A stretch of DNA of 28,790 bases from Candidatus Methylomirabilales bacterium (GTDB lineage Bacteria > Methylomirabilota > Methylomirabilia > Methylomirabilales > CSP1-5). Below the pieces are notes generated by a model. It saw only the letters and a list, made by a program, of their open reading frames with translations. It had not been told where the DNA came from and did no database searches. Of the stretch, positions 3,150 to 12,984 are shown piece by piece (position 1 is the stretch's first letter; each line of letters starts with the position of its first letter). The stretch lies in assembly GCA_046758505.1 (NCBI GenBank), contig JBHIAH010000025.1, forward strand, positions 1 to 28,790. The letters are read 5' to 3'. The translations under genes and the position numbers were made by a program.

Positions 3150-4448
3150 ATGAACACGATCAACGTTGGCCTGGTGGGCTTTGGGACGGTCGGAACGGGC
3201 GTTGTCAAGCTCCTGACCGAGGAGGCGCCCCTCTTGGAGCGTCGCGTGGCGGCACGGGTCCGGCTCACGCGGATTGCCGACATCGATCTTACGAGGGCGC
3301 GGGAGGTGCAGGTTGACCCCACAATCCTCACCACGGATGCGCGAGCGGTCACCGAGGATGCGGCCATCGATATCGTCATCGAGCTGATCGGCGGCACGAC
3401 GGTGGCCCGAGAGGTCAGCCTGGCCGCGTTGCGGAATGGCAAACACCTGGTCACCGCCAACAAAGCCCTGCTGGCGACCCACGGCCCCGAGTTGTTCAGG
3501 GCGGCAGCAGAGCGGCGCGTCGATCTGGGGTTTGAGGCCAGTGTCTGCGGAGGGATCCCGATCATCCGGGCCGTCCGCGAGGGTCTGGTGGCCAACCGGA
3601 TCCAATCCATTCACGGGATTGTGAACGGGACGTGCAACTACATCCTCACGAAGATGACAGAACTGGGGATCCCGTTTGCAGAGGTCCTGAAAGAGGCGCA
3701 GGCCAAAGGCTACGCCGAGGCCGATCCGTCCCTGGATATCGACGGTGTCGATGCCGCCCACAAACTCCAGATCCTCGCTTCCATCGCCTACGGAGGCTCG
3801 GTCGACTTCAACACCATCCACATCGAAGGGATCCGGGGCATTGATCCCGCCGATATTCAGTATGCGAGGGAGCTGGGGTACGGGGTCAAGCTGTTGGCCA
3901 TTGCCAAGGAGGCCGACGGGAAGATTGAAGCGCGGGTCCATCCCACCTTGATTCTTGAGGACCACCTCCTCGCCTCGGTCGGTGGGGTCTATAACGCCGT
4001 CTATATCGTGGGGAACGCCACCGGGTCGCTGATGTTTTACGGCAAGGGGGCGGGACAGATGCCGACGGCCAGCGCCGTGGTGAGCGACATCGTCGAGACC
4101 GCGCAGCACATCCTCCATCGGCGTCCGTCGAGGCCGTGGCCGATCCCGACAATGGCGGACATGGGGCTCCGGACCAAGGCGATGGATGACGTGCGGACCC
4201 GCTACTACCTGCGGGTGATGGCCGTGGACAAGCCCGGGGTCCTCTCCAAGATCTCGGGGATCCTCGGGGCGCACGAGATTTCTATCGCCTCGGTGATCCA
4301 GAAGGGTCGGCATGCCCGGGCGAGTGTCCCCATCGTGATGATGACCCATGAGGCGCTCGAGGGGGCGATGCGGAAGGCGCTCGCCGAGATTGATGCCATC
4401 GACGTGGTGGGGGAGAAGACCACTTGCCTCCGGGTCGAAGAATCCTAG
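3150..4448 (+). CDS. hom: Homoserine dehydrogenase with C-terminal ACT domain
   Basis: GFGTVG Rossmann motif, VTANK, EASVCGGIP, NGTCNYIL, GYAEADP, DAAHK; ACT-like DKPGVLSKIS; SD GAGGGAG. Confidence 0.97.
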   Translation: MNTINVGLVGFGTVGTGVVKLLTEEAPLLERRVAARVRLTRIADIDLTRAREVQVDPTILTTDARAVTEDAAIDIVIELIGGTTVAREVSLAALRNGKHLVTANKALLATHGPELFRAAAERRVDLGFEASVCGGIPIIRAVREGLVANRIQSIHGIVNGTCNYILTKMTELGIPFAEVLKEAQAKGYAEADPSLDIDGVDAAHKLQILASIAYGGSVDFNTIHIEGIRGIDPADIQYARELGYGVKLLAIAKEADGKIEARVHPTLILEDHLLASVGGVYNAVYIVGNATGSLMFYGKGAGQMPTASAVVSDIVETAQHILHRRPSRPWPIPTMADMGLRTKAMDDVRTRYYLRVMAVDKPGVLSKISGILGAHEISIASVIQKGRHARASVPIVMMTHEALEGAMRKALAEIDAIDVVGEKTTCLRVEES

Positions 4449-4451
4449 ATA

Positions 4452-4561
4452 GTTCATGGTTCATAGTTCAGAGTTCATGGAAAGGACAAAAGATTCCCAT
4501 CTCGATCTCTCAACCATGAACCGTGAACCCTGGACCGTTCTGTGAACCATGAACCCTGAAC
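4452..4561. repeat. Heptamer tandem-repeat palindrome: (GTTCATG-like)x4, spacer, (CATGAAC-like)x6-7
   Basis: GTTCATG GTTCATA GTTCAGA GTTCATG at 4452-4479; CATGAAC CGTGAAC CCTGGAC, then TGTGAAC CATGAAC CCTGAAC at 4515-4561 (reverse-complement units). Confidence 0.9.
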
Positions 4562-4574
4562 GGGTTTGTTTATC

Positions 4575-5630
4575 ATGTGGCGCGGTGTGATACACGAGTA
4601 TCGAGACTTCCTGCCGGTGACGGAAAAGACGCCCGTGATCACCCTGCACGAGGGGAACACCCCTTTGATCCGGGCGGATCGGCTCCGGGAGACCCTCGAT
4701 GCGCCGGTTGAGCTTTTTGTGAAGTACGAGGGGGCCAACCCCACGGGGTCCTTCAAGGATCGGGGGATGACGGTGGCGCTCAGCAAGGCGCTCGAGGAAG
4801 GGGCGACCGCGGTCATCTGTGCCTCGACTGGGAACACCTCGGCGTCGGCGGCCGCGTATGCCGCCCGGGCCGGGTGCCGCGCCGTCGTCGTGGTTCCCAA
4901 GGGAAACGTGGCCCTGGGAAAGCTGTCGCAGGCCGTCATGCACGGGGCGCTGCTCATCGAGCTGGAGGGCAACTTTGACGAAGCCCTCGAGATCGTGAAA
5001 GGCGTGTCGGAGAAGTTCCCGGTCGCCCTGGTCAATTCCGTGAATCCCTTCCGGATCGAGGGGCAGAAGACGGCCGCCTTTGAGGTCTGTGAGCAACTGG
5101 GGACAACCCCCGACTTTGTGTTTATCCCGGTTGGAAATGCCGGGAACATCAGTGCGTACTGGAAGGGCTTCCGCGAGTACCGCGAGGCGGGAAAGGTGAG
5201 CGGCCTCCCCCGCATGATGGGCTGGCAGGCCGAAGGGGCAGCCCCCCTGGTGCGTGGCCGGGTCGTGAAGCACCCCGAGACGGTGGCGTCGGCCATCCGC
5301 ATCGGAAACCCGGCCAACTGGAAGCCGGCTTTGGCGGCGGTCGAGGAGTCCCAGGGGGAGATCGGCACCGTATCGGATGCGGAGATCCTCAGCGCGTACC
5401 GACAGGTGGCTGAGCTCGAGGGGGTCTATTGCGAGCCCGCCTCGGCGGCCGCGGTGGCTGGACTCATCAAAACCCATCGGGATCGGAAAATCCCGCCCGG
5501 CGCCCGAGTCGTCTGCATCCTCACCGGACATGGGCTGAAGGACCCGGAAAGGGCCCTGGCACTTGCGCCACCGCTCAAGGTGGTGGAGGCGAATCTGGAG
5601 GCGGTCGTCCAGGCCATGGGCCTCGGCTAA
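4575..5630 (+). CDS. thrC: Threonine synthase
   Basis: [13 protein letters not shown]-lysine motif, [35 protein letters not shown]. Start placed at ATG 4575 (MWRGVI). Confidence 0.97.
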
Positions 5631-5639
5631 AAAACAAAA

Positions 5640-5669
5640 CAATGGGGTCAAGTCTTTTGTTGACAAATT
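5640..5669 (+). repeat. Left terminal inverted repeat
   Basis: CAATGGGGTCAAGTCTTTTGTTGACAAATT; the reverse complement of 6632-6661 is CAATGGGGTCAAGTCTTTTGTTGACTAATT. Confidence 0.95.
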
Positions 5670-5687
5670 CGGCTGCGACGGTAGTCT
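5660..5687 (+). promoter_or_regulatory. Candidate sigma70 promoter for the transposase (predicts a leaderless mRNA)
   Basis: TTGACA (5660-5665, inside the TIR)-N16-TAGTCT (5682-5687). The GTG start is 7 nt after the -10 and has no SD. Confidence 0.6.
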
Positions 5688-5693
5688 CTGAAC

Positions 5694-6653
5694 GTGGCCC
5701 GGCCACTCCGAATCGAATACCCAGGCGCCATCTATCACGTCCTGAACCGGGGGACCGCCCGCCAGCGCGTGTTCCGCGACGCGCGTGACTACCAACGGTT
5801 CTTGCACGGCGTGACAGAGGTGCATGCACGTTGGGGGGTAGAGGTCTTTGCGTACTGTCTCCTTGGCACCCACTACCATCTCTGTTTACGCACCCCCAGG
5901 GGCAACCTCGGCCGGGTCATGCGCCATATCGATGGGGTGTATACCCAGCACTTCAACCGGGCACATGGACGCGACGGCCCCTTATTTCGGGGCCGGTATC
6001 GGGCTATCCTTATGGAGGCGGAGAGCTATCTCAGCGCGGTGGTGCGGTACATTCACCGGAATCCAGTCGCGGCAGGCCTCGAACACACCCCCGAGGCGTA
6101 CCCCTGGAGTAGCCATTACGCCTACCTCGCTCCTCATAAGGCACCCCATTGGCTGAACATCGCCCAGGTACTCGGCGCGTTCCCCGGCCCCAAAGCCTTT
6201 CACCGCTTCGTCCTGAGCGGGGATGAGCCTCAGCTCGAGCAGTTCTACGCGCGGAGGAGACAGCAGCCGATCCTCGGGGAGGAGCGCTTCCGGGCGTGGG
6301 TCCGGAGGAGAATCAAGGCCCTCGACCGGGAGCACCCCCGGGCGGAACGCCGCCTCCTCCGCCCGCCCGAGGCCGCGGTGGTGGCTCGGGTAGCCGCGGA
6401 ATACGGGATACCCCCTGCCACCCTTTGGGAGGGGCGGCGGGGCTCGGAGAACGAACCACGCAAGGTCGCCATGTACCTGGTCCAGCGCCTCTGCGACCTT
6501 ACGTTAAACGAAACGGCAGCCAGGTTTGGGGTAAGGAGCTATGGAGCAGTTGGCTGGGCCTGCAGCCAGGTGCGCTACCGCCTCGACAGGGACAGACGGT
6601 TCCGGGCGCGGATCGAGGGGCTCGAAGCAACAATTAGTCAACAAAAGACTTGA
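5694..6653 (+). CDS. REP-associated-type tyrosine (HUH Y1) transposase with DnaA-C-terminal-like HTH domain
   Basis: MARPLR..PGAIYHV.NRG N-terminus, HUH motif HYH (AYCLLGTHYHL), G.LF.GRY, catalytic Tyr in RYIHRNPV, YPWSS. The C-terminal PRKVAMYL..RLCDLTL.E.A.RFG..SY.AV resembles DnaA domain IV. The stop codon lies inside the right TIR. Confidence 0.9.
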   Translation: MARPLRIEYPGAIYHVLNRGTARQRVFRDARDYQRFLHGVTEVHARWGVEVFAYCLLGTHYHLCLRTPRGNLGRVMRHIDGVYTQHFNRAHGRDGPLFRGRYRAILMEAESYLSAVVRYIHRNPVAAGLEHTPEAYPWSSHYAYLAPHKAPHWLNIAQVLGAFPGPKAFHRFVLSGDEPQLEQFYARRRQQPILGEERFRAWVRRRIKALDREHPRAERRLLRPPEAAVVARVAAEYGIPPATLWEGRRGSENEPRKVAMYLVQRLCDLTLNETAARFGVRSYGAVGWACSQVRYRLDRDRRFRARIEGLEATISQQKT

Positions 6654-6661
6654 CCCCATTG
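6632..6661 (-). repeat. Right terminal inverted repeat
   Basis: AATTAGTCAACAAAAGACTTGACCCCATTG; encodes the last codons (ISQQKT) and the TGA of the transposase. Confidence 0.95.
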
Positions 6662-6933
6662 CCCTCGGATGAGGATGGGCGGCCGGATGGCCTGGAGGTC
6701 AGGCTTGGAACGTATGCTTTAGGATGGGCCGAAGCGCCGCAGGCTCCTCACCCCGCCGCCGCTCGCCAGCTGTGCCCCCTGGGTAAGCGTGATGCTGGTA
6801 ACGGGCATCACCACATCGGGCATGGAGGTCCGGCTGCGCTAGCCGCCCGGGCCGCTTAGCGGAGGAGGTCCCGGAAGATGGTGGCGTATGGTACCCGGCA
6901 CGTGGGCGACTCAGATCTCCAACAACAAAGGGC

Positions 6934-7013: not shown

Positions 7014-7088
7014 GCGGGAATAGCTCAGTGGTAGAGCATCGCCTTGCCAAGGCGAGGGTCGCGGGTTCAAATCCCGTTTCCCGCTCCA
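7014..7088 (+). tRNA. tRNA-Gly (GCC)
   Basis: Acceptor GCGGGAA/TTCCCGC + T-CCA; anticodon stem TCGCC/GGCGA with loop TTGCCAA; T-loop GTTCAAA. Confidence 0.98.
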
Positions 7089-7098
7089 GCGGGACGTC

Positions 7099-7174
7099 GG
7101 CGGCGTAGCCAAGTGGCTAAGGCAGAGGTCTGCAAAACCTTTATTCCCGGGTTCGAGTCCCGGCGCCGCCTCCA
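7099..7174 (+). tRNA. tRNA-Cys (GCA)
   Basis: Acceptor GGCGGCG/CGCCGCC + T-CCA; anticodon loop CTGCAAA; GTTCGAG T-loop. Confidence 0.97.
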
Positions 7175-7180
7175 AAGATC

Positions 7181-7245
7181 GTTCATGGTTCATGGTGAAT
7201 GGTTCATGGGTGTCGAGCCGTGAACAAGGCACCACGGACCCATGA
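7181..7245. repeat. Heptamer-repeat palindrome in the tRNA-Cys/tRNA-Leu spacer
   Basis: GTTCATG GTTCATG GTGAATG GTTCATG (7181-7208), then a degenerate inverted arm CGTGAAC...CACGGAC CCATGA (7219-7245). Confidence 0.8.
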
Positions 7246-7315
7246 GGGCGAGCTAGCGGTGGTGGTCTGCGTGGGCGGTCATCGGTCATCGACGCACCGC
7301 CTTTGGCGGTGTAGG

Positions 7316-7403
7316 GCCGGGGTGGCGGAATGGGCAGACGCAAGGGACTTAAAATCCCTCGGGCCTAAGGTCCGTGCGGGTTCGAGTCCCGCCCTCGGCA
7401 CCA
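7316..7403 (+). tRNA. tRNA-Leu (TAA)
   Basis: Acceptor GCCGGGG/CCTCGGC + A-CCA; anticodon stem AGGGA/TCCCT with loop CTTAAAA; long variable arm. The Gly-Cys-Leu order matches the conserved glyW-cysT-leuZ type cluster. Confidence 0.97.
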
Positions 7404-7504
7404 GCCGTTCCGTACGGAGGGTTCACCGGTAACTGGATTACAGGGTGGGGAGGTGCCGGGACCAGGTGTCGGCGCGCCGTGAAGAGTGAACGGTGAACCG
7501 CGGG

Positions 7505-7579
7505 AGGCACGTAGCTCAGGGGGAGAGCGCTTGCTTGACACGCAAGAGGTCGGCGGTTCAAGACCGCCCGTGCCTACCA
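7505..7579 (+). tRNA. tRNA-Val (GAC)
   Basis: Acceptor AGGCACG/CGTGCCT + A-CCA; anticodon stem CTTGC/GCAAG with loop TTGACAC; GTTCAAG T-loop. Confidence 0.97.
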
Positions 7580-10989: not shown

Positions 10990-12147
<1,158 letters not shown>

Positions 12148-12393: not shown

Positions 12394-12519
12394 GTCATCG
12401 ACCGACGACAAACGACAGGCGATGGGTTTTCGGACGGTCATCGGACTTCGGCGAGCCCAGTCGAGCCGTCACCGGTCATCGGTCGTCGAACTATGAACCA
12501 TGAACTATCAACCATGAAC
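12394..12519. repeat. Composite heptamer repeats (CGACGAC/GTCATCG family followed by CATGAAC family)
   Basis: CGACGAC AAACGAC AGGCGAT (12403-12423); GTCATCG GACTTCG (12437-12450); GTCACCG GTCATCG GTCGTCG (12468-12488); TATGAAC CATGAAC TATCAAC CATGAAC (12492-12519). Confidence 0.8.
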
Positions 12520-12984
12520 CAGGACGAGGGTGCGGATCGCGTCGCCCGATGGATGGCCGAGCGGGGCATCGCTGGGGAGCTGGTCTGCCCGGGGGAACCC
12601 ACCCCGACGGTCGAGACCGCTGCCGCTGCCTTGGGTGTTCGACCCGAGCAAGTCGTAAAATCCCTCCTCTTTCTCGTCGATGGAGATCCCTATCTCGTGA
12701 TTGTGCGGGGGACGGCCCGGGTGAACACAAAAAAGCTTCTCAGTTGGGTCGGGGGGAAGAAGGCCCGCATCGCGACTCGTGAGGAGGTAGAGGATATCAC
12801 CGGGTTTCCTGTGGGCGGGACACCCCCGTTCGGCCATCGACGACCGCTGCCGGTCCTCATTGATCAGGGCGTTCTAGAGCTCGAAGAAATCTATGCCGGC
12901 GGCGGCGACACCGACGTCATGCTGCGCATCCGGACTGCCCATCTCCTGGAGGGCACTCACGGGAGGGTCGTGGACGTCACCTGA
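12514..12984 (+). CDS. YbaK/EbsC/ProX-family aminoacyl-tRNA deacylase (trans-editing INS superfamily)
   Basis: T.T...AAAALG....QVVKSLLF (conserved Lys), TGFPVGGTPPFG (GxxxP loop), VLID, YAGGG; about 156 aa. The 94 upstream codons in the ORF track translate repeats and hairpins. Confidence 0.9.
   Translation: MNQDEGADRVARWMAERGIAGELVCPGEPTPTVETAAAALGVRPEQVVKSLLFLVDGDPYLVIVRGTARVNTKKLLSWVGGKKARIATREEVEDITGFPVGGTPPFGHRRPLPVLIDQGVLELEEIYAGGGDTDVMLRIRTAHLLEGTHGRVVDVT

Follow-up and report, generated by a model that had tools for sequence, protein, structure and literature searches.

The window, the whole stretch of 28,790 nucleotides analysed here, carries between a threonine synthase-like gene and a cluster of four tRNA genes a compact element made up of one transposase gene enclosed by two terminal inverted repeats (Table 1). 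The left neighbour is presumably thrC, a name based on motifs and gene order. The element consists of 1014 bp between the outer Gs of its two GGGG motifs, to which either end adds a CAAT tail of 4 nt. The original prediction described 30-bp repeats around a single ORF, and both their coordinates and their identity were reproduced: the arms are complementary at 29 of 30 positions and perfectly so over the first 25, the sole mismatch, at 5665, falling on the final A of the left-arm TTGACA. When the window was shuffled 30 times in local dinucleotide blocks, perfect inverted matches reached at most 14–20 nt. The only longer one in the window itself is a perfect 28-nt self-palindrome (11062–11089) at the start of a pheS-like gene, and the ORF translations suggest a second, similar copy shortly upstream. 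The predicted position of the stop codon inside the right repeat also held, the TGA at 6651–6653 being that of TGACCCC in the right arm. As predicted, REP hairpins of the GTAG type do not flank the gene: within 300 nt of the ORF none of −4 kcal/mol or better was found, and the only hairpin matches there were four weak folds preceded by GTGG (−4.1 to −5.8 kcal/mol). The bases outside the two arms differ, so that the window element shows no target duplication.

Table 1. Features of the element and of its immediate surroundings, in window coordinates
Feature	Position	Strand	Remarks
Threonine synthase-like host gene (thrC), left neighbour	4566..5630	+	Conserved in relatives
Low-complexity A/C junction filler, thrC to left repeat	5629..5639	+	Congeners diverge after 5628
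Whole TIRtron	5640..6661	+	1022 bp; tail length inferred from relatives
Left terminal inverted repeat	5640..5669	+	Tail CAAT 5640–5643; conserved core GGGGTCA 5644–5650
Candidate sigma-70 promoter, leaderless transposase mRNA	5660..5687	+	Sequence and family pattern
TIRYT transposase gene	5694..6653	+	319 aa, GTG start
HUH/Y1 catalytic domain, residues 1–185	5694..6248	+	Invariant residues; model match to 4ER8
DnaA domain IV-like helix-turn-helix, residues 224–319	6363..6650	+	Pfam Bac_DnaA_C; model match to 3PVP
Right terminal inverted repeat	6632..6661	-	Core ends 6657; tail 6658–6661; overlaps last codons and stop
tRNA-Gly, -Cys, -Leu, -Val cluster, right neighbour	7014..7579	+	After a spacer of ~350 bp

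The entire stretch was also found on one contig, with zero differences, in each of four public DNA runs (X1–X4) of a single study, which is possibly the source of this DNA; because of this identity across four runs, the element is not an artefact of one assembly. Congeners part from the window after 5628, where the thrC stop codon begins, and the A/C filler that follows may have arisen as a junction stutter. A dehydrogenase gene (isocitrate/isopropylmalate) lies between thrC and the tRNA cluster at three loci of relatives (L002:2573-3661 in G010, L005 and L008), and dehydrogenase-matching sequence follows thrC in relatives within runs X1–X4; it is missing at the window site, and a remnant is present in G005 and G007. 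Loss of this gene may have been caused by the element, against which counts that eight congeners without the element likewise lack an intact dehydrogenase gene. The right spacer at 6666–6731 had no match in its own genome or in the fetched loci, and matched a 968-nt contig of run X4 at ~85%. Degenerate arrays of a 7-nt repeat (TTCATGG or ATGAACC type), some in inverted pairs, sit in spacers and at a gene start (4448–4480, 4502–4569, 7178–7209 and 12488–12524).

The transposase matched two Pfam families above their curated cut-offs, Y1_Tnp (residues 13–123) and Bac_DnaA_C (residues 229–293). H60-Y-H62 is encoded at 5871–5879 and the predicted catalytic Y119 at 6048–6050; both histidines and the tyrosine were invariant in an alignment of 62 sequences, and a W138-S-S motif is also present. 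A structure model built from the alignment reached a pLDDT of 89, and a single-sequence model (pLDDT 42) was discarded. Residues 1–185 of the model superposed on the TnpA-REP structure 4ER8 (Z 17.3, rmsd 2.2, 156 aligned) and residues 224–319 on DnaA domain IV, 3PVP (Z 15.2, rmsd 1.8, 95 aligned); Foldseek matched the model to the HUH/Y1 fold of the IS200/IS605 type with E-values of 2e-4 to 1e-3. The transposase looks intact.

Among known classes, the element almost certainly belongs to the TIRtrons, whose genes are termed TIRYTs, and so to a class already named rather than to an unrecognised system; its protein motifs and C-terminal tail match TnpA-Y1 subclass 2.1. Di Nocera, De Gregorio and Rocco (2013) introduced both names for units in which the gene is flanked by long inverted repeats instead of REPs, the repeat overlapping the 3′ end of the gene; they describe a GGGGWSAS motif in some, not all, TIRtrons, and further repeats, single or in pairs, scattered over the host genome (PMC3733652). 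Quentin et al. (2018) placed 20 of the 26 Di Nocera TIRYTs in subclass 2.1, all with the HTH tail, and reported the subclass in about 15% of the strains surveyed; in its available text, their paper does not treat subclass 2.1 as typical insertion sequences and takes no position on recognition of the repeats by the HTH tail (PMC6006769). Subgroup 2.1.2 corresponds to RAYT group 1 of Bertels et al. (2017), which has the top duplicate rate (6.3%) among the true RAYT groups (PMC5581495). Our element combines an IS200-type tyrosine transposase with an HUH motif and long terminal repeats, not REPs, flanking the gene. Its repeat motif, GGGGTCAA, agrees with GGGGWSAS at seven of eight positions, the eighth base being A and not C or G; among 212 family ends, 89 fit all eight positions, 129 fit GGGGWSA and 40 are GGGGTCAA. 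The protein motifs THYH, YIHRNP and PWSS stand against NH[YF]H, Y[IV]HLNP and SS in subclass 2.1, with one substitution in each of the first two, and the C-terminal Bac_DnaA_C/HTH tail of the subclass is present.

Other assignments fit less well. REPtrons and RAYTs (groups 2.2 and 2.5) carry GTAG-tagged REPs, which are lacking here, and the protein scored 67.6 bits against the curated RAYT model NF047646 (REP_Tyr_transpos), below its cut-off of 80. IS200/IS605 transposases consist of a core of ~150 aa with a Y---Q motif, as opposed to 319 aa and YIHRN in our protein, and their elements have subterminal hairpins and no terminal repeats, whereas here repeats are present and the internal fold reaches only −2.3 kcal/mol; the absence of target duplication is shared with them by the window element and its family. 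As for DDE elements, both protein domains are accounted for by the HUH and DnaA-IV folds, and the fixed-length target duplication of such elements was seen in none of 106 repeat pairs. In a literature search that covered subscription journals thinly, the names TIRYT and TIRtron were found only in Di Nocera 2013 and Quentin 2018, and work on TIRtron mechanism or biochemistry was not found, judged on titles and the openings of abstracts. The passages of PMC3733652 on TIRtrons give no exact ends, empty sites, promoter, stutters or mechanism. The locus is a further intact TIRtron, of a class that is named but mechanistically untested in print. The idea of an uncharacterised system survives in that we found no published mechanism, but not in the sense of a new class, as this one is already named (PMC3733652, PMC6006769) and very widespread.

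The family was surveyed from 207 homologue sources: the best 80 of 508 matches, 79 loci from the best 80 of 545, 30 from one search of relatives, seven loci fetched from relatives, one viral locus and ten paralogue regions of the element's own genome. Fifty sources were left out (24 with short flanks, 16 truncated, eight broken or short and two without the N-terminus), and the 157 intact sources with enough flank formed 124 clusters at 85% identity. A repeat pair was found in 106 of the 124 clusters of these best-scoring matches, with detection anchored on a GGTC-like motif, so that conservation of the core is partly built in; homologues of the transposase thus do carry terminal repeats, and 18 clusters were without a pair. 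Among the elements with pairs, the HUH motif is kept in 104/106 and the Tyr motif in 99/106, and the repeats are specific to each HUH gene. The own genome holds 12 paralogue matches at 33–50% identity, 11 of them with a repeat pair of their own. Occurrence on plasmids (one record) and on viral contigs (one locus) is rare. Some family members are stationary, since one cluster of eight loci in which no repeat pair was detected (L053, L057, L059–L061, L063, L066 and L220) shares its locus and downstream flank; this lineage has possibly been immobilised.

The family very probably moves autonomously. In 11 of 13 congeners thrC and tRNA-Gly lie on one contig, and the element was absent from that site in all 11, eight having spacers of 147–269 bp and three the isocitrate/isopropylmalate dehydrogenase gene; among 29 thrC loci, neither transposase nor repeat was found. 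The proposed search for element-free sites in relatives therefore showed that the element is not fixed in the lineage. An exact empty site for the window copy was not found, the closest congener having a thrC only 83% identical and intergenic DNA that could not be aligned. A whole element 73% identical to that of the window lies at another locus in G012. The closed chromosome G042 carries three full copies of an element whose protein is 42% identical to the window transposase; these copies differ from one another at 4–6 positions per 1033 nt (99.4–99.6% identity) and have unrelated flanks. The only exact simple-insertion empty site in the whole set was provided by L074 and L264 (86–88% identity), where the element splits a run of T; nothing was duplicated, and the left junction bears a filler of 9 nt. 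Sequence identity between element copies stops at the repeats. With its anatomy, its catalytic residues and the recent copies in relatives, the window element bears out the description of an intact, minimal member of a mobile family.

Searching the genome with the terminal repeat, as had been suggested, uncovered related solo repeats but no second copy of the window element. The solo repeats lie at C11:20403, C5:41295, C15:252, C131:67, C93:550 and 2206, C20:10553 and C50:448, and several are stuttered; those of C15 and C131 have 72 nt in common, starting 5 nt outside GGGG, and the two on C93 point outward around 1.65 kb. No partner or transposase remnant was found in the sequence inward of the solo repeats, up to 1.3 kb. 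Gene-less mini-elements of 60–200 bp with paired or stacked repeats of the L074 type, several with a CAAT tail, were seen in G041 (L306–L311). Joints indicating excision, inversion or a circle of the window copy were absent from the contigs of runs X1–X4, in which rare variants are dropped, and no cointegrate or circle was observed in the family. One variable island, compared between L143 (G027:C5), L144 (G036) and L145 (G030), has a constant element and neighbours that change on both sides, with a run of small toxin–antitoxin-like genes beside the element in L143. What we take, judging by motifs, to be a truncated rlmKL-like gene and an IS630-like remnant adjoin the two repeats in L144; the labels IS3 and IS91-like are presumed on the same basis.

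The outer limits of the element were examined in repeat coordinates counted from the first G of GGGG (+1), with negative positions outside. Identity between left and right repeats was 0.86–1.0 over +2 to +19 and reached background by +29; at −1 to −4 it was 0.65, 0.58, 0.42 and 0.42, against 0.40, 0.37, 0.35 and 0.27 expected. Complementarity extended at least 4 nt outward in 18 of 106 pairs (2.9 expected), and left and right tails were identical in only 18/106 pairs. The three G042 copies have exactly 4 nt in common beyond GGGG at each end, as have L112 and L113, a pair rejected as independent insertions and read as one island with differing neighbours. In L031 the 4-nt tail is followed directly by sequence from within a multicopy repeat, whose middle it adjoins, and L177, compared with L031 (97%), has 5 nt in common on the right and 3 on the left. 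The element thus likely terminates 4 nt outside GGGG, CAAT being its tail here. As copies carry exactly 4 nt outside GGGGTCA, positions 5640 and 6661 are probably the true ends, and the end coordinates originally proposed are probably exact. More distant relatives in runs X2–X4 diverge from the window directly after 6657, which would follow from tails that vary from element to element.

Many junctions are untidy. Stutters, defined as exact duplications of at least 9 nt touching the outer junction, occurred at 51 of 212 ends, compared with 1.1% at 60–100 nt further out and 3/212 at the inner edge. The duplicated run ended at +6 to +9 in 30 of the 51 (mode +7). In 35 perfect single tandems, 20/35 of the inner breakpoint weight lay at +6 to +8, and the outer breakpoint peaked at −4/−5 and again at −8 to −11. 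By eye, five of the six ends of the recent G042 copies are stuttered, each differently, starting at −4/−5 with a variable inner stop, and behind one of the copies lies a partial copy of 426 nt in tandem. The window copy has no qualifying stutter, only its short A/C filler. The uninterrupted sequence was known for four sets of junctions; one is a simple insertion, and in the other three the neighbour breaks off where the repeat begins, the fillers there measuring 0, 2 and about 16 nt. The original claim that target-site duplication is lacking extends to the family: none of the 106 element pairs, the window's included, showed a duplication of 5–9 nt at any boundary offset from 0 to 6, and long direct repeats in the flanks occurred at only 3/106 loci. 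An echo of the 3′ end of thrC in the right flank, considered as a degenerate duplication, was not significant (score 7, p 0.75). A preference for terminators as targets was not supported (5/212 ends against 7/609 controls), L074 and L111 being the two clear cases. At L111 (G012:C160) the element is bracketed by a 66-nt direct repeat of 83% identity, comprising a gene end and a terminator, which stems either from a long duplication of old date or from a tandem paralogue that has been truncated. Four different elements (L071, L096, L110 and L231) abut, on one flank each, a near-identical 17-nt sequence of the CTTAACTAAGTGCCATT type, which suggests a recurring target or a common neighbour.

The C-terminal domain probably reads the inner part of the repeat, to judge by how the two vary together. 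In pairwise comparisons, how alike two inner right repeats are (+8 to +24) was correlated with identity of the HTH once the rest of the protein was controlled for (partial r 0.31, and 0.37 for residues 270–297), compared with 0.09 for the catalytic core; in a sliding window the correlation peaked at residues 267–308 (0.29–0.37). As these values come from non-independent pairs of kin, they amount to a hint. The element-specific inner part of the left repeat, to about 5669, is thus the likely, predicted HTH binding site. Two substrates had been put forward at the outset, and this covariation favours HTH binding of the repeats as double-stranded DNA, whereas pairing of the repeats as single strands is less favoured. 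The left repeat likely also holds the −35 box of a leaderless promoter beneath the putative HTH site. The candidate comprises TTGACA (5660–5665), a 16-nt spacer and TAGTCT (5682–5687), with the start codon 6 nt later; a consensus promoter scanner did not flag it (−10 box 3/6). Across the 106 pairs TTGAC was present in 55 left and 28 right arms (discordant pairs 29 vs 2), a TA...T −10 box followed 16–18 nt after it in 17/55 left and 0/28 right arms, and it lay 34–38 nt upstream of the start codon in 46 of the 55. A REP- or IS200-like hairpin inside each repeat was rejected as weak, the family median z being about 0.

In the reading that we prefer, the HTH would grip the inner part of each repeat as double-stranded DNA, and the HUH/tyrosine centre would nick one strand per terminus, 4 nt outside GGGGTCA. 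The enzyme would remain on the 5′ end of the element at both ends, on opposite strands; the element ends would be joined to a free 3′-OH at the target, and host replication would copy the element in. Aborted joins, or copying that restarts at the terminus, would give stutters, intramolecular events would delete flanking DNA, and the protein may repress its own leaderless promoter in the left repeat. HUH enzymes form a 5′-phosphotyrosine linkage that any 3′-OH can resolve, as described in PMC8266576. A terminal nick with copy-in is the simplest reading because the ends are symmetric, the tail travels with the element, partial copies start at the terminus, no fixed duplication is made and flanking DNA is lost. 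We regard the chances as even that the cut lies at the −4/−5 terminus and is followed by replicative copy-in, each step of which we infer. Against it count the single window copy, tail identity in no more than 18/106 pairs, the one exact empty site, the 18/124 clusters without a repeat pair, and an inner stutter breakpoint that in the broad set is more fixed than the outer one, a pattern that a cut after GGGGTCA would explain no less well. That last point belongs to a rival in which the strand that reads into the element is nicked immediately behind GGGGTCA (+7), the 3′-OH of the flank primes rolling-circle-like displacement synthesis and slipping back of that end produces the stutters. The end of 30/51 duplicated runs at +6 to +9 and the 20/35 breakpoint weight at +6 to +8 speak for it, as does a binding site beside a conserved nick site, which is the layout of Rep and relaxase origins. 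We consider it unlikely, as it leaves by itself unexplained the 4-nt tail that travels with independent copies, and in the copies of most recent date it is the outer breakpoint that stays fixed.

Similarly doubtful is single-strand peel-and-paste as in IS200/IS605, in which repeats on the lagging strand would pair, or fold GTCAA/TTGAC hairpins, and a single-stranded circle would be pasted without duplication. The characterised relatives all act on single-stranded DNA, according to PMC6006769 and PMC8266576; the absence of target duplication agrees with this, the two arms are predicted to pair at −32.7 kcal/mol, and a TGAC complementary to positions +4 to +7 was seen again in 48 left and 26 right arms out of 106, where about 5.5 would be expected. 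However, the internal hairpin has little stability, and its TTGAC half, which left arms retain and right arms have lost, makes better sense as a −35 box; the HTH resembles binders of double-stranded DNA and tracks the repeat sequence, and a precise version of this route predicts no fillers, stutters or flank loss. Far less probable still is domestication of a RAYT-like gene with no mobility of its own, the repeats serving only as operators or as targets of spreading mini-elements and patchiness due to horizontal transfer and loss. REP-associated RAYTs reportedly do not copy themselves (bioRxiv 10.1101/2021.07.10.451892), the window copy is single with paralogues only 33–50% identical, solo repeats and mini-elements exist and one cluster is fixed at its locus. 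Opposed to this are the three near-identical full G042 copies at unrelated sites, the exact empty site, the end of identity at the repeats and, in RAYT group 1, a duplicate rate of 6.3%, the highest of the true RAYT groups (PMC5581495). It is extremely improbable that an unrelated transposase mobilises the repeats in trans as ends of the DDE type, with the HUH gene as cargo: DDE elements typically have terminal inverted repeats (PMC4810608), but target duplications are absent, each HUH gene has its own specific repeats, which covary with its HTH, and the HUH and Tyr motifs are kept in 104/106 and 99/106.

Extended to the class, copy-in from a terminal nick would make TIRtrons a large, active IS family with an undescribed pathway, in which a DnaA-type HTH steers an HUH enzyme to symmetric double-stranded ends; we put this forward tentatively, at just short of an even chance. 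With the same reserve, 5′ ends would be joined to a 3′-OH, a mirror image of DDE copy-in, and restarts would write terminus tandems and delete neighbours. The class matters more than the locus, which is ordinary and one of very many. If the inferred route is true, HUH transposases also work on ends other than single-strand hairpins, and one common origin of trimmed islands and of short tandem repeats at gene junctions would be accounted for. Defined ends, candidate cut sites (−5/−4 versus +7/+8) and a candidate recognition helix make the mechanism directly testable.

Compared with known systems, the window element is of the same kind as the TIRtrons described in PMC3733652 and differs only in the eighth base of its motif. 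Subclass 2.1.2, or RAYT group 1, is like it in the HuH, Tyr and SS motifs, the Bac_DnaA_C tail, the lack of REPs in the published accounts, GGGG[AT][CG]A repeats and a patchy spread. In contrast to the treatment of subclass 2.1 in the available text of Quentin et al. (PMC6006769), our data favour recognition by the HTH and real transposition. TnpA-REP/RAYT proteins (E. coli, Stenotrophomonas and Marinomonas; 2.2 and 2.5) provide the closest solved fold, 4ER8, and the same predicted phosphotyrosine chemistry; unlike our protein, they bind GTAG-tagged single-stranded hairpins, cut at CT or CA, are described without an HTH (PMC8266576) and reportedly do not copy the gene that encodes them. IS200/IS605 TnpA (IS608 and ISDra2; subclass 1.1) and ISC share with the window element the HUH/Y1 fold, the absence of target duplication and the importance of 4-nt junction sequences, whereas IS200/IS605 elements are described with proteins of ~150 aa, asymmetric subterminal hairpins, no terminal repeats, precise single-strand excision and fixed targets (PMC4810608). 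The GTCA termini of ISC were rejected as a sign of kinship and are a resemblance only, ISC elements having no terminal inverted repeats. In layout, TIRtrons can be likened to IS26, IS1 and Tn3, with terminal repeats that are likely read by an HTH, a probable promoter in the left repeat, a stop codon in the right repeat and adjacent deletions. Those DDE copy-in elements transpose replicatively. TIRtrons differ from them in having no RNase H/DDE domain, no fixed target duplication, a predicted tyrosine intermediate and stuttered ends.
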